64,000 bases of DNA from Candidatus Bathyarchaeia archaeon (GTDB taxonomy: Archaea > Thermoproteota > Bathyarchaeia > 40CM-2-53-6): positions 103,633-167,632 of the forward strand of contig JBEKVV010000004.1 of the NCBI GenBank assembly GCA_049513715.1. The letters run 5' to 3'. Under the pieces are notes generated by a model. That model ran no database searches and had not been told where the DNA came from. It worked only from the letters and a program-made list of their open reading frames with translations. A program made the translations under genes and the position numbers. Below, piece by piece: positions 41,262 through 49,623 of the stretch. How positions within the stretch are numbered: the stretch's first letter is position 1; each line of letters opens with the position of its first letter.

Positions 41262-42203
41262 ATGATGCCAGTTAATGAGAAGGATGTCGTAGCGGCAATC
41301 GAGAAAGTGAGCCCTGCGGTCGTGTCCATCGCAACCCTTAGGGTCATTCAGGAGAACCTGTTTGATGCTGTTCCAGTTCGCGGCTTGGGCTCGGGTATTA
41401 TTTTCGATTCTAACGGTGGGATACTTACGAACCACCATATCGTTGAGGACGCTGAGAGGGTTCAGGTGGTTACTGCGAACGGGAAGAAGTTCCAGGGAGA
41501 GGTGTTGGGCTCTGATGCGATGTCGGATGTGGCTGTGGTCAGGGTGGATGGCGAGGGATTGCCTGCCGTTAGGCTTGGGGATTCCGATAAGTTGGTTGTG
41601 GGTCAAATTGCGATCGCAATCGGTAACCCGTACGGGTTTCTTCTACCCGGGCCGACGGCGACGGTTGGTGTAATCAGTGCTCTGCAACGGCATCTCCACG
41701 TTGAGAACCACATGTACGAGGACCTGATTCAAACCGACGCTTCAATCAACCCAGGAAACAGCGGCGGCCCCTTGGTGGACAGCTCAGGCCAAGTCATTGG
41801 CGTCAACACGGCTAACATACCGTTCGCGCAGGGCATAGGGTTCGCGATACCAATCAATAATGCGCGGAAGATTGCGAAGGAAATAATCCAGCACGGACGC
41901 GTCCCGCGACCGTACCTAGGTATCTCAGGCCTGACTCTGAACCGAGACATAGCCGAATCCTACAATATTCCACACGAGAAGGGAGTGCTGGTGGTTAGGG
42001 TGGGGAGGGGTAGCCCAGCCCATAGGGGTGGCATGTCAGCCGGAGATGTGATTCTTGAGGTCGACAAGAAACCTCTGAAGGCTTGGGAGGATTTGCAGCA
42101 TGTGGTTCAGGAGAAGAAGGTGGGAGAGAGTTTGGAATTGTTCGTGGGCCGCGACCAAGAGCAAGGCAAGATGAACATAGTCCTGGAGGAAGCGGCCAGG
42201 TAA
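41262..42203 (+). CDS. HtrA/DegP-family serine protease with PDZ domain
   Basis: TNHHIV, D, and GNSGGPL catalytic triad context. C-terminal PDZ (GSPAHRGGMSAGDVILEV). Confidence 0.85.
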   Translation: MMPVNEKDVVAAIEKVSPAVVSIATLRVIQENLFDAVPVRGLGSGIIFDSNGGILTNHHIVEDAERVQVVTANGKKFQGEVLGSDAMSDVAVVRVDGEGLPAVRLGDSDKLVVGQIAIAIGNPYGFLLPGPTATVGVISALQRHLHVENHMYEDLIQTDASINPGNSGGPLVDSSGQVIGVNTANIPFAQGIGFAIPINNARKIAKEIIQHGRVPRPYLGISGLTLNRDIAESYNIPHEKGVLVVRVGRGSPAHRGGMSAGDVILEVDKKPLKAWEDLQHVVQEKKVGESLELFVGRDQEQGKMNIVLEEAAR

Positions 42204-42492
42204 ATCTTCGTCCTAGCCACAGATTGGCGCCATTTTTCCTTTCTATTATTGTTGAGTAGGGGGGAGGGGGCAGTAGGGCAGTATGGGCCCCATCGTCGTG
42301 TTTCGGGATAAGATTTAAGCCAGTCATACTGGACGACAGACCTGAATCCAAACTAGGTTGCTGATTCCTCCGCCCTCCGGGGACTGGATCCAGTACTCCA
42401 ACCTCTGAGCACCAACCAAGCCACGATTCGGGCTTTCTGGTGTTTTGCTGGCGGCTTGGCCGTAGCCTGTGATTCTTGTCGCGTGATCTTGG

Positions 42493-42828
42493 TTGGTGTT
42501 GTTCTTGAGGAAGAGTGTTCTTCGTATCTGGATTCGACAGCGTGAACTAGATCTGTTGGATGAATTGGCGAAACGCCTCGGGTTGCCCTCTAGAAGCCGA
42601 CTTACAAACATCGCTCTGCAGTTCTTTTTCGAGCTAAACCATGAAGATCTCCCTGCTGCGGGGCAGAGGCGCAGGGTCAAGATATTGTTGGATCCATCAA
42701 TCAAAGAAGAACTGGACGAGCTCTCCACATGCTTGCTCATTCGAAAAGCTTACCTGACGAAGATCGCGCTCAACGAATTCACACGTCGTTACCGGGCGAC
42801 TTCTGTTCAACGAGATCATGAACCCTAG
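42493..42828 (+). CDS. Tandem ribbon-helix-helix (CopG-like) DNA-binding protein
   Basis: Two RHH units: LRIWIRQRELDLLDELAKRLGLPSRSRLTNIALQFF and VKILLDPSIKEELDELSTCLLIRKAYLTKIALNEF. Confidence 0.6.
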   Translation: MVLFLRKSVLRIWIRQRELDLLDELAKRLGLPSRSRLTNIALQFFFELNHEDLPAAGQRRRVKILLDPSIKEELDELSTCLLIRKAYLTKIALNEFTRRYRATSVQRDHEP

Positions 42829-42908
42829 CCGTACGTTAGGCCGCCTAACACAGTTTCGATTCCAGCCACCTTTCGTCAAGGGAATGGATCAGGTCGGGGT
42901 TATCTGAG

Positions 42909-43289
42909 ATGGCAAATGAGTCGCATAAAAGCGACGATCCAGAAGTTGACATTCAGCAGGTAATCTGCAAATTAGTGCTAGCTCTGAAGCGATTGGAGGG
43001 CTACAATCCGGTTCTAGATCTGCCGCTCATTGAGGAGGTAGCCCGCAGCGCGGCTTTCATCAGACTCGGCGAAAGCTTCCTGATCAATCCGAAATGCTCT
43101 CCGGGAACGTACGCCAGTATTTCTGATGGGATAGCGAAGCATGCGTCCAGAATGCGCCAAGCCATGAAGGAGCTGGCAGCTACGAGAGCGGAGCGAATGC
43201 GCTACCAAACTGCAACGGCACAAGCCGCGCAGGTCAAAGAGATCGTGGATAAGATCATTCACCAGGAGAATGAGCATGACAGCGCGTGA
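42909..43289 (+). CDS. Hypothetical protein (possible small terminase/packaging accessory)
   Basis: 126 aa, helical C-terminus. The 3' end overlaps the TerL start by 20 nt, suggesting an operon. Confidence 0.4.
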   Translation: MANESHKSDDPEVDIQQVICKLVLALKRLEGYNPVLDLPLIEEVARSAAFIRLGESFLINPKCSPGTYASISDGIAKHASRMRQAMKELAATRAERMRYQTATAQAAQVKEIVDKIIHQENEHDSA

Positions 43290-44613
43290 AAGATTCCGAG
43301 AAGAGGTAAGTAAGGCTAAGTGGAATGCGGCCTACTTTGCCGAAATCTTCCTCTCTCTGAGACCGTTTCCATACCAAGTCGACTTTCTCAGGGACGATGG
43401 AAAAGAGATTGCCGCGGCATGCGGTCGCCAGGTTGGAAAGACCACCCTAGCCGCAATCAAGGGTTTGCATTTTGCCTTCTTCCATCCAGACGTGACTGTG
43501 CTGATCATCAGCTCCACGCTCCGCCAAAGCATGATCCTGTTCGCAAAGATCCGCTCAATGACAGAGTCGAACCCAATTCTCCGAATGAAAGTGAAGAACT
43601 CGAACCGGACAACAATTGAATTCGATCACGGCAGCCGAATCGTGGCGTTGCCCTGCGGACCGACCGGTTACAGCCTACGAGGCCACACCGCGGACATGAT
43701 CATCCTAGATGAAGCGAACTTCGTGCCGGAAGAGATTGTGGACGGCGTCGTAAGGCCCATGCTCATCGCCAAACCCAACTCAAGACTCATCATGGTCTCC
43801 ACACCTTGGACTCGAAACCATCCATTCTACCGAGCCATCTCTGAGAAGGGTCGAGGATTTCATGTCTACAGATGGCCGACAAGCCTCAGCCCACTAGTCT
43901 CCGCGGAGAAGCTTCAAGCCGACCGCAACGCCCTCGACGCTCTCACATTCAGAAGAGAGTACGAAGCCCAGTTCGTCGAAGAAAACGATTCCTATTTCCC
44001 AACCCACCTCATCTCGCAGTGCGTAGACGGAAGCTATGAACTCCTGGAGGATCAGGACGTTCTCCAAACCGAACACAAAGGCGTCTTTCACCTGGGCGTG
44101 GATTTTGGGAAGCGGGTTGACCACAGTGTCCTAGCTGTTCTTGAGGAATCCGCAGGCCGACTTCAACGCTTAGTCTATCTAAAACAGTTCCCGCTGCAAA
44201 CAAATTACGCAACGGTAATCGGCTGGATTCGCCGCCTCAACGAGGGTTTCGGATTCGAGAGTGTAACCCTAGACCAGACAGGAGTCGGAGAAGCACCAGT
44301 CGAAGACGTGAAAACCTTCCTTCCAAACGCTGAAGGCGTCATTCTGACGAACAAGATGAAACTGGATATTCTATCGAACCTGCAACTTCTCATGCAACAT
44401 GAGAGGTTGAAGATACCGCTCGAAAAGACCATAATCACCCAGATCAACGAGCAGCAATACGAGATCAATAAGACAGGGGAACTAATCTTCTCACACCCAA
44501 CCCGATCACACGACGACAAACTCTGGGCTTTGGTTTTTTCAGCTTGGGGAGCCAGAAAACCACCTCGCCCAAGCTTCTTGCCAATAACCCGCTCCTTTGG
44601 ACTAAGACCCTAA
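43270..44613 (+). CDS. terL: Terminase large subunit-like ATPase/nuclease (TerL)
   Basis: Walker A CGRQVGKTT, Walker B ADMIILDEA, and RNase-H-like nuclease acidic residues (GVDFGKRVDHS, LDQTGVGEA, SHDDKLWAL). Confidence 0.8.
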   Translation: MSMTARERFREEVSKAKWNAAYFAEIFLSLRPFPYQVDFLRDDGKEIAAACGRQVGKTTLAAIKGLHFAFFHPDVTVLIISSTLRQSMILFAKIRSMTESNPILRMKVKNSNRTTIEFDHGSRIVALPCGPTGYSLRGHTADMIILDEANFVPEEIVDGVVRPMLIAKPNSRLIMVSTPWTRNHPFYRAISEKGRGFHVYRWPTSLSPLVSAEKLQADRNALDALTFRREYEAQFVEENDSYFPTHLISQCVDGSYELLEDQDVLQTEHKGVFHLGVDFGKRVDHSVLAVLEESAGRLQRLVYLKQFPLQTNYATVIGWIRRLNEGFGFESVTLDQTGVGEAPVEDVKTFLPNAEGVILTNKMKLDILSNLQLLMQHERLKIPLEKTIITQINEQQYEINKTGELIFSHPTRSHDDKLWALVFSAWGARKPPRPSFLPITRSFGLRP

Positions 44614-44747
44614 CTGATCGAAATGATTGCCGGAACATGTAACGACTCAGCCGGTGACCACTTTGGGTCTATGGGCAATCTTGTCAGGATCGCTGATTCT
44701 CGGGTCTTGGAAAAGTTTAGGTAGTCTCACCCCTTGCTCGTGTGGTA

Positions 44748-44942
44748 GGGCCCGTAGCTCAGTCAGATCCACGCAAAATGGATCCTAGATAGGTAGAGCA
44801 TCGGAAACACCGTGCAATTCCACGGGTGTTGGTGATGCTTTTACCCTGGGTTTCTGGAACCTTAGGGAAGCCACCCGAAAAGACACCGCTTAACCGCGGT
44901 CTTGGGGAAGGGTCCCGGGTTCAAATCCCGGCGGGCCCGCCA
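44748..44942 (+). tRNA. tRNA-Lys(UUU) with four insertions (D-loop, 30/31, 37/38, 43/44)
   Basis: GGGCCCG-UA-GCUC-AGUC[about 25 nt]UAGGUA-GAGC-A-UCGG[44805-44836]G-CUUUUA[44844-44872]A-CCCGA[44879-44909]GGGUC-CCGGG-UUCAAAU-CCCGG-CGGGCCC-G-CCA. The last three have clear BHBs. Confidence 0.85.
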
Positions 44943-45137
44943 CCTTCACTGAGTGGCTGTACCATTTTCTTGATGCCAGCAGGACAAAGTCCTCCCGCGA
45001 GTAGCCACCATCAGTCTTACGTGAGCATATGCCAGGATTTTTTCTGGTTTGGCGTTTGGAGCGAGCTGTCGTCAAAGACACCGCTCCCTTGACCACACTA
45101 GAACAATTCCTCAGCCCGACTTGTATTCTGCAGCGCA

Positions 45138-45160
45138 GGGCCCGTAGTTTAGTCAAGGTG
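45138..45160 (+). other. Isolated tRNA 5'-end fragment (similar to the tRNA-Lys 5' end)
   Basis: GGGCCCGUAGUUUAGUCAAGGUG compares with GGGCCCGUAGCUCAGUCAG of the gene at 44748. No matching 3' half follows. Confidence 0.45.
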
Positions 45161-45283
45161 AGTCCGACTGTTTTCGTACACTTTTAGTGGGTGAGTGGCG
45201 TGACTGAGCCTAGGCAACGCGGAAGGCTATCTCAGCGCAAAGTCTCTTTAGTAAATCCAAAAGCTAGTCGTTTCGGGTCTATT

Positions 45284-45630
45284 ATGAGCCCGCAATTCAT
45301 CCGCTCCAAAAGAGCTTCCAATCTTAGCAAATCCGTGGAGCTTGAGGCGTTCCTTGGTTCCTGCAGAAACGATTGGCTAAAAGAGAAAGCCGAAGAGGCA
45401 TTCACAGAAATAAAAGCTCATTATGAAATTGGCGACAAGGTCCAGAAGGACAGATGGCCGCGCTATTACGTCTTGACATGGGGATCAACAATCTGTATGT
45501 TCATAAGCTTGGGCGCGACTGGCGCTTAACCTACTCGCTCGTAGCAGATGAAGTAGGAATCATGGCCTTCTGCCTTGAAATCCTGACACACAAGCAATAT
45601 AACAAAAGGTTTGGTTACGGGAACACCTAG
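45284..45630 (+). pseudogene. RelE/ParE-superfamily toxin gene interrupted by a frameshift near 45470
   Basis: Frame 2 gives ...KAEEAFTEIKAHYEIGDKVQKDRWPRYYV. Frame 1 continues ...DMGINNLYVHKLGRDWRLTYSLVADEVGIMAFCLEILTHKQYNKRFGYGNT*. Confidence 0.55.
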
Positions 45631-45887
45631 CGCACGCGGATGCTTTTCGCCAATGCCCGCTTTAACGTGGCGTTGTCAGCGAAGACCCAGACGATTTCAC
45701 GATCATTCAAGATTATTTTGTTGCTTGCTAGCAAGTACTCTATGACACGGTTGAAAGTTTGGTATTGTACCTTGCGCGGGAGGCTTTGCCACAGGGCCTT
45801 CTTGGTCGGATAGTTTTTCGCTTTGTGTATGGCTTCTTCCACCATCAGTATGGTTCCTAGTGTGGGTTCGTGGGCGTTTTTCACCAT
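45627..45887 (-). CDS. Small winged-helix-like hypothetical protein
   Basis: 86 aa, preceded by an AT-rich promoter-like tract at 45940-45990. Confidence 0.45.
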   Translation of the reverse strand: MVKNAHEPTLGTILMVEEAIHKAKNYPTKKALWQSLPRKVQYQTFNRVIEYLLASNKIILNDREIVWVFADNATLKRALAKSIRVR

Positions 45888-46068
45888 CAGACATTTCCTC
45901 TCCCTTAGAGTTACTACTACAGTAGACTACTATGGTAATGTGCTATTTATACATAATTGTATATTATACAAGTATGTATAATGCTTTAATTGTCGGAAAA
46001 CGCTATGCCCGCCACATCCATCAAGGGTTGTCATGAAGATTTTGCTCAAGATCCCTGATCTCATGATG

Positions 46069-46095
46069 TTGGTGGGTTCAAATCCCACCGGCCCA
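46069..46095 (+). repeat. tRNA T-arm/3'-end fragment (copy a of a 21-nt direct repeat)
   Basis: ttggtgggttcaaatcccacc (46069-46089) followed by ggcccaacca. The identical 21-mer recurs at 46741-46761. Confidence 0.7.
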
Positions 46096-46147
46096 ACCAT
46101 CTCGTCTGTGTAATGACCGTTCTTTCACGAGAGTATAATTGAGTCCA

Positions 46148-46411
46148 TCATTTGTAGGCCCTTCCTCTGAACTCGACAGCGAGAACGGCAATCGTTTTGG
46201 ATTCCCAGTCGACCTCATACTCGATGCGGATTTCTCCTATTCGTATTCTGTAGGTGTCATGCATCCCAGCCAGTTTCCTGACATCGTATTCAGGAACTGG
46301 CGCTGGATTCTGACTCAAAGCCTCTAAAACCAGCAGGACTCCACGCGCGTAGTGGCTAGGTATACGCCTAAGCGACTTCCTAGCACGGTTTGAAATAATG
46401 ATTTCGAACAG
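46148..46411 (-). CDS. relE: RelE/ParE family toxin (no ATG/GTG/TTG start; absent from ORF track)
   Basis: (L)FEIIISNRARKSLRRIPSHYARGVLLVLEALSQNPAPVPEYDVRKLAGMHDTYRIRIGEIRIEYEVDWESKTIAVLAVEFRGRAYK*. It begins 5 nt downstream of the antitoxin stop codon. Confidence 0.65.
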   Translation of the reverse strand: MFEIIISNRARKSLRRIPSHYARGVLLVLEALSQNPAPVPEYDVRKLAGMHDTYRIRIGEIRIEYEVDWESKTIAVLAVEFRGRAYK

Positions 46412-46416
46412 GAGAG

Positions 46417-46620
46417 CTACGCACCGAGTTCCTTTCGGAGCTGGCCTAAGGTGACGTAGCGGCCCTTCTCAACCTCTAGCCGACCCTGTCGGATCAGTTT
46501 TCTTTCTCTGGCAGTCACTCGCTCTTCCGGAAGTAGGGCCGCCCTTAAGCGAAGAAGCTCTATCTTCACGTCGTCAAGCTTCGTGATTACTTTACGCAAT
46601 TCAGTCTTGGTTACTGCCAT
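46417..46620 (-). CDS. Antitoxin partner of the RelE/ParE toxin
   Basis: MAVTKTELRKVITKLDDVKIELLRLRAALLPEERVTARERKLIRQGRLEVEKGRYVTLGQLRKELGA. Small and helical, directly upstream of the toxin. Confidence 0.55.
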   Translation of the reverse strand: MAVTKTELRKVITKLDDVKIELLRLRAALLPEERVTARERKLIRQGRLEVEKGRYVTLGQLRKELGA

Positions 46621-46740
46621 TAGATTATCCCGCACATCTGCAGTCTAACCAACTAGTAAAAGAATCTGGCGTCTGGCAGAGCCTTATCTCCTTCCTCCTA
46701 CGGGGTGGGTATTCTACTTAGAAACGTGATTAGTCCCACA

Positions 46741-46761
46741 ATTGGTGGGTTCAAATCCCAC
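46741..46761 (+). repeat. tRNA T-arm fragment (copy b of the 21-nt direct repeat)
   Basis: ttggtgggttcaaatcccacc is identical to 46069-46089. The downstream acceptor-like sequence differs (ctgcccca). Confidence 0.7.
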
Positions 46762-46843
46762 CTGCCCCAGCACTTTCCTGTTTACCCGTTGCCGTCGAGC
46801 ATTGCACCTACTCCATTGGAGGTCGGCATGTGATGTGCTGGTC

Positions 46844-46957
46844 GGTGATGCTTTTACCTTTTCGGGAAACGTAAACCCAGGGAAGCCACCCGAAAAGAAA
46901 CCGCTTAACCGCGGTCTTGGGGAAGGGTCCCGGGTTCAAACCCCGGCGGGCCCGCCA
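46844..46957 (+). pseudogene. Partial second copy of tRNA-Lys(UUU) (from the 30/31 intron 3' end through CCA)
   Basis: GGUGAUG-CUUUUA-CC is identical to 44831-44845. The last 77 nt (46881-46957) match 44866-44942 with 2 mismatches. The interior of the 37/38 intron is unrelated. No acceptor 5' strand lies upstream. Confidence 0.75.
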
Positions 46958-47061
46958 ACTCCCTGTTCCTCATGAATGTCCGCGTGAATCCGAACAGCCT
47001 TCTTGCTGGGGCCCTGCAGATGATGGTCGAGAAGAATGGAAGCTTTTGCATCTAAGCCAGA

Positions 47062-47247
47062 TTAGCTCAGGCGTTTCCCGCATACTCCGCAATGATGTGC
47101 ATATGCTGGGTTCACGTTCCCGCATTTGGGGCAGGTTCCACCCACCATCATTGGTGTCCTGGGGAGTGGTGTCCCGCAGCTGAAGCAATAGCTATTGAAC
47201 GGGGGGTTCCAGGTGCAACATATCGTGCAATAGGAAGAAGCGACCAT
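47062..47247 (-). CDS. Double zinc-ribbon small protein
   Basis: CTICCTW...CFSCG...CPKCG...CGVCG: four CxxC pairs in 61 aa. Confidence 0.5.
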   Translation of the reverse strand: MVASSYCTICCTWNPPFNSYCFSCGTPLPRTPMMVGGTCPKCGNVNPAYAHHCGVCGKRLS

Positions 47248-47292
47248 GATACTCAGTCCAACCTGTAACCCTCAAAAGGGCATCCGAATAAA

Positions 47293-48171
47293 ATGTTTGC
47301 CTTAGCCCATGGTCATGCATCTGCAATTCATATGGAAGGAGGACGCAAAAATCGGCTTGGTCAACGGGAACTGACCTACTGGATTTGGAGTTTGTTTCCT
47401 TTCTTGGAGAACATCGACCCCGTCTATCTTCTCCAGCCCATAATCACAATCGCGTTCAGCATTGGCCTGGTTGTTTTCTGGCACTACTGGCGCAGTTTCA
47501 CGAGAGGCGCACTGATCTATTCCCTCCTTGCCTACGGGGGAGGAATACTGATCAAAATAGTCCTCCAATCCTTCACAGCCAGTGCGTTTGTGGCCCGGTT
47601 CGGGGAGAATCCGTACATTTTGGGGGCGTACTTTGGGCTTCAAACTGTCGTTTTTGAAGTAGGTGGGGCGTTCTTGGTAGCGACTTGGGCGGTTTCCAAA
47701 GGCAAGCTCGCGGCCAAAGACGATGAAGGCTACGGACTGGGACTAGGGCTATGGGAGAACGCAGTAGTGGTCGGTGGGTTTGGTTTGCTGAACCTTTTGA
47801 TAATCTACTTAACATTCGCGTCCGGAGGATCTACAGCTGAAGCCCTACGCGCAGTAGTTGTCAACTCCAATCCTGAACTTTTCGCGCCACCAGTCCAAGC
47901 TTTCACGACGGTGGGATTTGGCTTGTTGGAGCGAGTGTCGTCGCTCATATTCCATTTCGCGTGGGGGCTTCTCTGCGTGCTTTCAGCAGTCACTCGTAAA
48001 CGACTATACTTCGTAGTGGCGTTGCCGATGGGGCTCGTGGACTTTCTCGTTCCATTTTCCAAAATCCTAACGATTCCAGTCTTCGAAACAAGCGTCTTCA
48101 TTCTAGCTGTCCTAGCTCTCCAGTTGTCCCTGTATGTGACGAGGGGAGATCGACAACCACCTCAAACATAG
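47293..48171 (+). CDS. Hypothetical polytopic membrane protein
   Basis: Seven or eight TM helices. No diagnostic motif recognised. Confidence 0.5.
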   Translation: MFALAHGHASAIHMEGGRKNRLGQRELTYWIWSLFPFLENIDPVYLLQPIITIAFSIGLVVFWHYWRSFTRGALIYSLLAYGGGILIKIVLQSFTASAFVARFGENPYILGAYFGLQTVVFEVGGAFLVATWAVSKGKLAAKDDEGYGLGLGLWENAVVVGGFGLLNLLIIYLTFASGGSTAEALRAVVVNSNPELFAPPVQAFTTVGFGLLERVSSLIFHFAWGLLCVLSAVTRKRLYFVVALPMGLVDFLVPFSKILTIPVFETSVFILAVLALQLSLYVTRGDRQPPQT

Positions 48172-48189
48172 GTGAGCTTGCTGTCCCTC

Positions 48190-49623
48190 TCACTGATTTT
48201 CACCGTGACCCATATGCTCCATTTCGTGGTGGTATTGCTCAGGCGTCATTAGGCTTTGGAATGCGCGGTCAACAACCTCGCTCAAGGCAGGATGAATATG
48301 CATCGCATCGAGCAAAGGCCGCGCGCTCTGCTCAGGCGTATACATCAAGTTGATGATTTCCTGAATCAAAACCGACGCTGAAGGTCCAATGATGTGCGCA
48401 CCAAGAATCCTGAGGCCGTTCTTTTCGAGAATAACCTTGACGAAATAGTCTTTCACTGCCATGGCTTCCCCTTTAGCTGTGTCTTGGTAACGCTGAAATC
48501 CGATCAGAGTTCCTTCAGACCCATATTTCTCGATGGCTTCATTCTCTCTGAGTCCAACAGCCGCGACCTCGGGGTATGTGAAGACCGCGTGCGGAACGGC
48601 ATGGTAATCTACAGGGATTCTGCGACTCAAAACCGCGTTATAAAACACTATCCGGGATTCATAATTACCTACATGTTTGAACAAGTACTTACCATGAGCA
48701 TCGCCGAAAGCCCACACGTTGGGTAGTGAAGTTTCCAAGAATTCGTCGACCAACACCCACCCCTTTTCGTCAGTCTTGATTCCTCCCTTGTCAGGGTGGA
48801 GTATGTCGGTTGTCGGTCCACGTCCTGAGGCAATCATGATTTCTTTCGCAGTGATTGTTGTCTTCTCTCCTGTTTTGTGGTCAACGGCAAGTAGGGATTT
48901 TCCGCCGGGTTCGTTCTGTGCGGTCATAACCTCATGGTTTGTGAGAATCGTCATGTGTTTGCTGAGTTCCCGCTTGGCTAGGGCTGAAACCTCAGGCTCT
49001 TCTTGGGGTAGGAATTGTGGGTTTCGGCCGATGATTGTGACCTTTGAACCCATCGCGGACAGAAAATGGCCATACTCGGCGGCGATGTACCCACCGCCTA
49101 CGATGGCTATGCTTTCTGGCAAAGTGGTTTCGTAGAGTATAGTATCGCTTGTCTTGTAACCAACTTCATTCAAGCCTTTGATGGGAGGAATGATGGGCTT
49201 TGAGCCGATGGACAGAAGAATCATCTTGGATCTGATAGTCTCTTCTCGCACCTTCAGTGTATACCGGTCAACGAATTCAGCGACGGCGTGGTAATAGTCG
49301 ATGTTCGGCGATTCGCTCAATCCTTGCCTGATTGAGTTGATGTCGCCATCGATTAGAGTTCTCATGCGCTTCATGACCTTGCCAAAATCAACGTTCCGTA
49401 TTGCCACGTCTATGCCAAAGGTTCCGGCACGTTCGATCTCACGAACAAGTTCGGCTGGGTACAGTAGTATTTTTGATGGGATGCAACCTCGTGTTAGGCA
49501 GATTCCTCCAGGTTCATCTTTGTCGATTACTGCTGCCTTGAGGTCGGGGCTCCTTTGGATCATCCCATCAAGAACGTTCATCGCAGAGCCGGTGCCGATT
49601 GCAATCACATCATACTCTTTCAT
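48190..49623 (-). CDS. Class I pyridine nucleotide-disulfide oxidoreductase (dihydrolipoyl dehydrogenase family)
   Basis: GTGSA FAD motif, redox-active GGICLTRGCIPSK, and C-terminal HIHPALSE His-Glu pair. Confidence 0.85.
   Translation of the reverse strand: MKEYDVIAIGTGSAMNVLDGMIQRSPDLKAAVIDKDEPGGICLTRGCIPSKILLYPAELVREIERAGTFGIDVAIRNVDFGKVMKRMRTLIDGDINSIRQGLSESPNIDYYHAVAEFVDRYTLKVREETIRSKMILLSIGSKPIIPPIKGLNEVGYKTSDTILYETTLPESIAIVGGGYIAAEYGHFLSAMGSKVTIIGRNPQFLPQEEPEVSALAKRELSKHMTILTNHEVMTAQNEPGGKSLLAVDHKTGEKTTITAKEIMIASGRGPTTDILHPDKGGIKTDEKGWVLVDEFLETSLPNVWAFGDAHGKYLFKHVGNYESRIVFYNAVLSRRIPVDYHAVPHAVFTYPEVAAVGLRENEAIEKYGSEGTLIGFQRYQDTAKGEAMAVKDYFVKVILEKNGLRILGAHIIGPSASVLIQEIINLMYTPEQSARPLLDAMHIHPALSEVVDRAFQSLMTPEQYHHEMEHMGHGENQ

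Follow-up and report, generated by a model that had tools for sequence, protein, structure and literature searches.

Within a window of 64,000 nucleotides from the 2.79-Mb genome assembly of a soil/peat archaeon (G000; contig C4, positions 103633–167632), an intact four-intron tRNA-Lys(UUU) gene (c1, 44748–44942, plus strand) is followed by a 5′-truncated tRNA-Lys copy (c2, 46813–46957, plus strand) that begins 1.87 kb after it, with toxin–antitoxin (TA) genes and tRNA fragments lying between the two. Coordinates without a contig label are window positions, and C1–C5 denote contigs of G000. The segment appears to be a composite scar, now decayed, left by mobile DNA upon recombination with the tRNA-Lys(UUU) gene, a reading held with moderate confidence. 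In such a scenario, incoming DNA would have brought its own part of tRNA-Lys—everything from exon 2 onwards, together with the introns—and recombination in or beside the 14-nt exon 2 (tRNA positions about 18–30) would have joined one 5′ part to one 3′ part. The joined product would be the working gene c1, the other 3′ part having stayed 1.9 kb downstream as the headless c2. The recombinase and most of the cargo would have been lost later, the survivors being a broken RelE-like gene with a winged-helix partner and an apparently intact ParE/RelE-antitoxin pair. Toxin–antitoxin pairs are expected to resist deletion. A second repeat pair around the TA cassette stems from the 3′ end of another tRNA, here termed tRNA-X, the target of a pNOB8-like integrase family elsewhere in G000.

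The locus was compared among the 23 genomes of the genus, G000 included (G-numbers), and with further loci, mostly on metagenome contigs (L-numbers); a metagenome scan for tRNA-Lys loci returned 118 loci, five close metagenome relatives (L064, L077, L086, L111, and L125) were singled out, and introns were compared across a set of 127 tRNA-Lys genes. All genomes compared are metagenome assemblies, and mis-assembly across the 82-nt repeat described below is formally possible. The linkage of tRNA-Lys and cargo is less likely to be an assembly artefact because contig L106 independently displays the same linkage.

The intact and the truncated tRNA-Lys copies

The gene c1, 195 nt in length, is the sole complete tRNA-Lys(UUU) gene of G000. 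Neither c1 nor c2 was detected by ARAGORN or Rfam; the tRNA-Lys(UUU) identity of c1 is clear after removal of four inserts, located in the D-loop, at positions 30/31 and 37/38, and in the variable loop. The approximate borders are 44748–44764 (exon 1), 44765–44790 (intron 1), 44791–44804 (exon 2), 44805–44836 (intron 2), 44837–44843 (exon 3), 44844–44873 (intron 3), 44874–44882 (exon 4), 44883–44909 (intron 4), and 44910–44942 (exon 5). An alignment of 19 full tRNA-Lys genes from the genus shows no variation in the five exon blocks, and the four inserts vary in sequence with their hairpins kept. The D-loop insert is missing from tRNA-Lys in nine genomes of the genus, three- and four-intron forms coexisting within it; a review from 2014 gave three as the maximum number of introns known in one tRNA gene (PMC4033280). 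A pattern spanning exon 3 to exon 4 matches G000 twice, at c1 and at c2, and is restricted within the order to this genus (19 of the 22 other genus genomes; none in other genera).

Compared with its nearest relative L064, c1 is identical in all five exons (17/17, 14/14, 7/7, 9/9, and 33/33 nt), in intron 1 (26/26), and in intron 3 (30/30), and intron 4 differs at three of 27 nt (24/27). Intron 2 of c1 (AAACACCGTGCAATTCCACGGGTGTTGGTGAT) is unrelated to intron 2 of L064 (17/32); a close match to it was not found among the 127 tRNA-Lys genes, and it is most like a G014-type intron with an enlarged loop. Judged by its exon identity to relatives, c1 represents a complete, functional-looking tRNA gene at one border of the island.

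The left edge of c2 was set at 46813 by alignment to full-length relatives. The copy comprises the tail of exon 2 (46813–46819; CCATTGG vs. GCATCGG), a complete intron 2 of 30 nt (46820–46849), exon 3 (46850–46856), intron 3 (46857–46888), exon 4 (46889–46897), intron 4 (46898–46924), and exon 5 (46925–46957), ending with CCA at 46957, and matches the full L086 gene at 93.8% identity over 144 nt. It lacks exon 1, the D-loop intron 1, and most of exon 2; an acceptor and a D arm are therefore impossible, and no tRNA can arise from c2 alone. Its exons match those of c1 at 7/7 (exon 3), 9/9 (exon 4), and 32/33 nt (exon 5). From intron 2 to exon 5, the agreement amounts to 28/30, 7/7, 21/32, 9/9, 25/27, and 32/33 nt with L064, and to 26/30, 7/7, 30/32, 9/9, 25/27, and 33/33 nt with L086. 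The T-loop variant C60 in the right-hand repeat is also present in L077, L086, and L125.

An earlier note, made from the letters of the window alone, had described direct repeats of 77 nt with two mismatches. These are real and extend to 82 nt (44864–44945 and 46879–46960, both plus strand; 79/82 identical), reaching from the end of intron 3 to 3 nt past the CCA. A second block of 18 nt (44828–44845 and 46841–46858) includes the 15 nt (44831–44845 and 46844–46858) that the note had already called identical, correctly so. The start of the repeat had been assigned to position 31 or 38 and lies in exon 2, at 46813, according to the alignment with relatives. The insert is thus flanked by direct repeats built from part of a tRNA gene (79/82, plus homology from exon 2 onwards). 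That the 82-nt block is almost identical in c1 and c2 means less than it might seem, as the close relatives all have much the same intron 4 and exon 5. The interior of the 37/38 intron (intron 3) differs between c1 and c2 (21/32) with bulge–helix–bulge pairing kept, as had been observed before; the c2 form sits in the full-length genes of L086 and L111 (30/32) and is therefore a working allele.

Empty site, breakpoint, and competing explanations

The order tRNA-Asp–HtrA–tRNA-Lys is conserved in the genus, and in most genomes 130–250 nt separate the tRNA from HtrA. A single tRNA-Lys gene is found at this locus in 20 of the 23 genomes, and a second, truncated copy occurs in G000, G020, and G018 only. 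The five close relatives share the upstream TerL at 84–94% and the tRNA region at 85–91% identity, and in all of them homology to the window stops at 44942–44944, that is, at the CCA of c1; their locus sequences contain neither island sequence nor a second tRNA-Lys copy. The unoccupied site is thus represented by 20 genus genomes and five close relatives, all of them single-copy. Relative to these, the island reads as an insertion and not as an ancestral tandem array, the arrangement which, if present in relatives, the earlier note had named as speaking against integration.

The main argument for a site-directed event lies in the breakpoints. Right at the border of exon 2 and intron 2, the working gene c1 changes from lineage-typical to foreign sequence. 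The same border is also the left edge of c2, which holds the lineage-typical intron 2, and independent truncated tRNA-Lys copies begin nearly alike, those of G020 and G018 at GCATCGG and those of L066, L104, and L106 at exon 2. Because the intron switch of c1, the edge of c2, and the other truncations coincide, a site-directed event is favored, and from this coincidence we infer the trace of a reciprocal exchange in or beside exon 2.

Several observations weigh against this reading. The 39 nt following c1 (trailer, 44943–44981, plus strand), which were not found in 58 family genomes, resemble in part the flank after the single tRNA-Lys gene of the metagenome loci L058/L061 (33/37) and L064 (18/19), and L058/L061 carry no second tRNA-Lys copy within 10 kb. 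Under a simple crossover inside c1, this flank should be element DNA; it would fit a crossover only if the arm of the element had itself been captured from such a host. The flank after c2 convincingly matches no relative, with nothing above noise. As trailers differ among all close relatives, their testimony on which copy is the resident one is weak: c2 may be the displaced 3′ part of the resident gene or may have arrived with the island, both being compatible with the trailers. A free element carrying the predicted attP was not found (0 matches in viral contigs). No integrase, partitioned integrase open reading frame (ORF), or other recombinase is left in 42200–48200, and the enzyme is hypothetical for this reason. 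Finally, a decayed tRNA 5′ fragment at 45138–45162 (plus strand) is unexplained by one single integration. Of the classical integration footprint claimed in the earlier note, the insertion, the mobile cargo, and the involvement of more than one element have stood; a strictly classical attL/attR reading is less secure, since a simple crossover would not lead one to expect the flank of c1.

The 45138 fragment, already reported in that note, is real and covers tRNA positions 1 to ~25; it lacks the D-loop intron, its D stem is degraded, and no promoter-like box lies upstream of it. It has two mismatches to tRNA-Lys over the first 17–18 nt and one to a GGGCCCG-type tRNA at C2:437757, which makes its likely source ambiguous. 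The fragment was rejected as a homologue of the promoter-linked 5′ fragments of G020/G004, since the tRNA part alone matches and the breakpoints differ; a likeness of 45118–45185 to the flank in L125/L077 was not upheld by MAFFT.

Some weight—well short of that of the scar—is due to an allele replacement that dispenses with any att system. Here, foreign DNA from about 44614 to 46812, comprising the tail of a gene termed ORF371, a promoter, a complete tRNA-Lys, its trailer, and downstream junk, would have been recombined in by an illegitimate or homologous event, with deletion of the sequence from the TerL end to the resident exon 2, so that c2 would be the stump of the resident gene. It would suit such a replacement that c1 and its trailer look like one L064/L058-type unit and that the deletion by which TerL became joined to the ORF371 tail at 44614 is specific to G000. 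TerL of G000 is, moreover, closest to that of L086 (93.7%), whose tRNA-Lys allele is of the c2 type (intron 3, 30/32; C60), whereas c1 is of the L064 type, and in G020 an old promoter with a 5′ fragment and an old 3′ fragment flank ORF371, a full tRNA-Lys gene, and a TA pair. However, two unrelated breakpoints would be needed, and neither the similar start of the truncated copies in G018, G020, L066, L104, and L106 nor the fact that c1 differs from L064 in intron 2 alone would be explained. The typing of alleles is itself weak, since population alleles are mosaics in which intron 1, intron 3, and T-loop variants assort independently.

A local tandem duplication, the second copy of which was then split by TA cassettes, is improbable. 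The 45138 fragment (positions 1 to ~25) and c2 (from ~24) are roughly complementary and in the right order, as expected for two halves of one gene. Yet the fragment lacks the D-loop intron present in c1 and all close relatives and is equally close to another tRNA. Intron 2 and the interior of intron 3 are completely different in c1 and c2, which rules the two out as recent duplicates of each other; a second copy is present in no more than three of 23 genomes, and two complete tandem tRNA-Lys genes were encountered in none of the 23 genomes and 118 metagenome loci. That c2, with its almost intact exons and introns that are working alleles, might be spliced in trans, as part of a split tRNA, to the 45138 fragment or to a 5′ half from another place in the genome is very improbable indeed, given that an intact gene with the same anticodon (c1) lies 2 kb away, that most of exon 2 is missing and the D stem of the fragment degraded, that neither piece has a promoter-like box upstream, and that the duplex which the fragment's trailer can form with the c2 leader (−54.7, against a mean of −48.0 with a standard deviation of 5.1 for shuffled sequences, 9% of which are as good) does not amount to a splice helix. 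With introns allowed, ARAGORN joins 45138–46957 into a single gene with a 1734-nt intron, a ‘tRNA-Glu’ that is spurious.

Cargo genes, nested repeats, and the search for an integrase

The cargo consists of a RelE-like gene with a frameshift, a winged-helix gene, and a ParE/RelE-antitoxin pair that is apparently intact, all three of which had been recognized in the earlier note. The island has a GC content of 48.3% vs. 51.6% for the window. The first is a RelE/ParE-like pseudogene (45284–45630, plus strand) with an intact 115-aa homologue in G022, and tblastn with this homologue places the frame switch between 45481 and 45517. Its family assignment is weak (ParE_like, E=0.022), and sequence searches with the pseudogene and the ORF371 family against Pfam, NCBIfam, PHROGs, and PDB returned nothing or a faint DUF790 match. 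Convergent with the pseudogene and overlapping its end lies the gene of an 86-aa protein (45627–45887, minus strand), a pairing kept in G022. The AlphaFold model of the product (pLDDT 78) displays three helices followed by a beta-hairpin (H-H-H-beta-hairpin), and its best PDB matches are DNA-binding domains of the IclR, MntR, MarR, and GntR types, which supports a predicted winged-helix, regulator-like fold. An AT-rich 17-nt inverted repeat upstream of this gene (45947–45981; 94% complementary), at which GC dips to 43%, is likely to be its promoter/operator.

The intact pair fits a type II toxin–antitoxin module (46148–46635) by virtue of a toxin domain and an adjacent antitoxin gene on the same strand. 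The toxin of the ParE/RelE family (46148–46390, minus strand) matches PF05016 with 33.9 bits (cut-off 23) over profile positions 6–89 of 89. The whole domain reads in frame, but ATG, GTG, and TTG starts are lacking before 46318 and none precedes the domain; G000 and a G004 homologue, both without a canonical start, have a CTG and the N-terminal residues in common, which suggests that the toxin may employ a non-canonical or coupled start. The small antitoxin-like gene (46417–46635, minus strand; 67–72 aa) lies directly upstream, and has no family match; its end at 46417 leaves 27 nt to the start of the toxin domain, an arrangement kept in G004 and L106.

This cargo is mobile. The stretch 46433–46762, which covers the antitoxin and the second of two T-arm fragments, is 98.5% identical to metagenome contig L106, whereas in relatives the neighboring TerL block reaches 84–94% and HtrA about 72%. 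In L106, the antitoxin segment is followed by a HicA-like gene, another T-arm, a c2-type truncated tRNA-Lys, and then quite different genes. In G004, a TA pair of 80% identity sits at a different locus, beside a T-arm fragment.

The two T-arm fragments themselves are real, as the earlier note had stated; they are, however, not tRNA-Lys debris but derive from another tRNA and form an att-like pair around the TA cassette. Fragment 1 (46069–46103, plus strand) reproduces the T-arm of tRNA-X together with its 3′ acceptor end, and fragment 2 (46729–46776, plus strand; T-arm part 46742–46776) includes a recurrent arm, ATTAGTCCCAC. An exact 21-nt repeat (TTGGTGGGTTCAAATCCCACC; 46069–46089 and 46742–46762) brackets the ParE/RelE-antitoxin pair, and the T-arm fragments with their 3′ extensions copy the end of the multi-intron tRNA-X (acceptor GGGGCCG), the real gene of which lies at about C2:373350–373530 in G000 and is conserved in relatives. 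To judge by these matches, the fragments are att-type scars of a second element family; because the nested repeat pair derives from a second tRNA, at least two elements have contributed to the island.

The arm ATTAGTCCCAC with its T-arm recurs at four other sites in G000 and in L106. One recurrence is the end of a 15.3-kb, integrase-bearing element (C3:181344). About 70 nt after tRNA-X, G003 and G004 encode a 470-aa protein with a weak Phage_integrase match, and in G000 the 470-aa integrase-like gene is located at C3:166142, within the 15.3-kb segment, which is bounded by 28-nt copies of the T-arm. This segment (C3:166055–181372), neither border of which is a complete tRNA, has the tyrosine-recombinase-like gene at its left end as well as large helicase- or restriction-like ORFs, and is probably an integrated element.

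At the tRNA-Lys locus, the integrase gene expected between attL and attR sites is absent, as the earlier note had asserted: a genome-wide profile search with PF00589 gave no match on contig C4, tblastn with the 470-aa integrase of G000 itself revealed no integrase remnant, and a five-member profile of this integrase family found nothing in the six frames of 42200–48200. A partitioned integrase of the SSV type was considered and rejected; the ORFs running through the repeats (44826–45092 and 46742–46975) join to ~125 aa and match nothing.

Sites derived from tRNAs are met elsewhere in the genus and in G000. In L025 (G018 C2:471333–471460), a truncated tRNA-Lys joins the 3′ end of tRNA-X within the T-loop and is followed by a remnant resembling an integrase N-terminus, which looks like recombination between non-cognate tRNA-derived sites at a common T-loop sequence. 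The segments C1:892164–892380 and C5:206370–206669 are near-identical over >200 nt and contain two successive T-arm fragments plus a third T-arm-like motif; genome-wide, a loose pattern detects about 30 more T-arm motifs than tRNA genes in G000.

Known systems and the region upstream of tRNA-Lys

Plasmids and viruses of archaea of the pNOB8 and SSV types integrate into tRNA genes (PMC3293823); together with the Caldiarchaeum model described next, they are the nearest published parallel. The locus shares with these systems a reconstituted tRNA at one border, a partial tRNA repeat at the other, an empty site, and foreign cargo. Whereas an integrase beside the tRNA is expected for the pNOB8 type and an integrase ORF split across the repeats for the SSV type, the tRNA-Lys locus has neither. 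In addition, the homologous block here measures about 145 nt and contains three introns, two of which differ between the copies, and the apparent junction is exon 2 instead of the usual anticodon or T loop. In a model for tRNA-Thr(GGU) of Caldiarchaeum subterraneum (Sugahara et al. 2012, PMC3293823), disruption of the tRNA by a mobile element leads to intron gain, the host gene being able to acquire an intron from an attP that contains one. In that case as well as here, a tRNA fragment and a full gene flank an insert, the copies differ in intron content or sequence, and population variants are rearranged; the idea of an intron-carrying attP would suit the unusual intron 2 of c1. In contrast to the 5′ fragment upstream and the recombinase-encoding insert of Caldiarchaeum, a 3′ fragment lies downstream here and a recombinase is lacking; the upstream ORF371 arrangement of G004, G020, and L059, described below, is the closer structural match.

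Among bacterial genomic islands and integrative elements, small islands with direct repeats at their borders are found at tRNA 3′ ends, and in these the TA modules outlive the rest. The present islet differs from these in its archaeal host, its multi-intron tRNA target, and a TA cassette with nested tRNA-derived repeats. A tRNA-Tyr/LAGLIDADG cassette in the same window likewise consists of a complete gene, selfish DNA, and then an intron-bearing partial back copy, although an endonuclease gene is kept there, whereas the tRNA-Lys locus is without an enzyme and carries TA modules as cargo. The locus thus fits a known kind and adds intron-allele detail to it; it defines no new kind. As a genome feature it is ordinary—a dead islet kept by toxin–antitoxin genes—and unusual only in its intron-carrying repeat.

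The wider matter is the old question of how the fragmented tRNA genes of archaea, with multiple introns or as split genes, have originated. Randau and Söll are said to have proposed in 2008 that introns are both brought in and selected for by mobile elements with tRNA genes as their integration sites. A corresponding proposal was also made by Sugahara et al. 2012 (PMC3293823). The locus provides a concrete natural example, with a duplicated recombination target containing three introns, with intron alleles that differ between c1 and c2 and that are both reported from working genes of the population, and with a c1 that differs from its nearest relative in essentially one whole intron, starting where c2 starts. 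Intron exchange through mobile DNA becomes testable at the population level in the many close relatives from peat and soil metagenomes.

The upstream side of tRNA-Lys, of which the earlier note made no mention, has been remodeled as well, by a terminase block and what is left of a nuclease-like cassette. A candidate small terminase subunit, with a weak Terminase_7 match below the cut-off, and an intact TerL gene (together 42909–44613, plus strand) lie between HtrA and tRNA-Lys, outside the island. The 2.4-kb terminase block (42209–44614) is 84–94% identical in metagenome relatives, HtrA there being ~72% identical (L111), and amounts to a conserved terminase standing by itself, the remainder of a virus being absent. 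A deletion at 44614, found in G000 alone, fused the end of TerL to a C-terminal remnant of ORF371 of ~47 codons (44578–44718, plus strand). Members of this family are 313–394 aa in size, with a faint match to a DUF790/Bax1-like nuclease, and include loci in L034 (2800–4031), L021 (2830–4003), and L059 (2844–4065). In G004, G020, L056–L059, and 37 database clusters, the ORF371 gene is always located directly upstream of tRNA-Lys with the box GGAAAAGTTTAcGTAG. The promoter-like box GGAAAAGTTTAGGTAG (44709–44724, plus strand in G000) is common to all ORF371-associated tRNA-Lys genes and is replaced by CTTTTGATA in the remaining genus members. In G004, G020, and L059, ORF371 is preceded by a tRNA-Lys 5′ fragment ending in the D-loop, exactly at the site of intron 1, and in G004 and G020 this fragment is clearly preceded by an older promoter box. 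ORF371 may be a tRNA-targeting selfish cassette.

It is conceivable, if doubtful, that the tRNA-Lys gene serves as a modular landing pad at which different selfish cassettes target different exons and bring replacement exons plus introns: the ORF371 nuclease-like cassette might address exon 1 and the D-loop, the TA island exon 2, and integrase elements the T-loop, an assignment equally tentative. If so, tRNA introns would be gained, swapped, and kept through the traffic of mobile elements, perhaps as a protection against re-invasion; the one-off intron 2 of c1 would be an example caught in the act, and the D-loop intron, located exactly where the ORF371 cassette breaks the old gene, would be another.

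Further upstream, at 42224–42323, lies a G-rich dispersed repeat of about 80–100 nt (CTATTATTGTTGAGTAGGGGGGAGGGGGCAGTAGGG) with at least nine further copies in G000, one of which abuts another tRNA-Lys 5′ fragment. Far from the gene, a tRNA-Lys 5′ fragment consisting of exon 1 and the start of the D-loop intron is present at C1:345353–345373 (minus strand) of G000.

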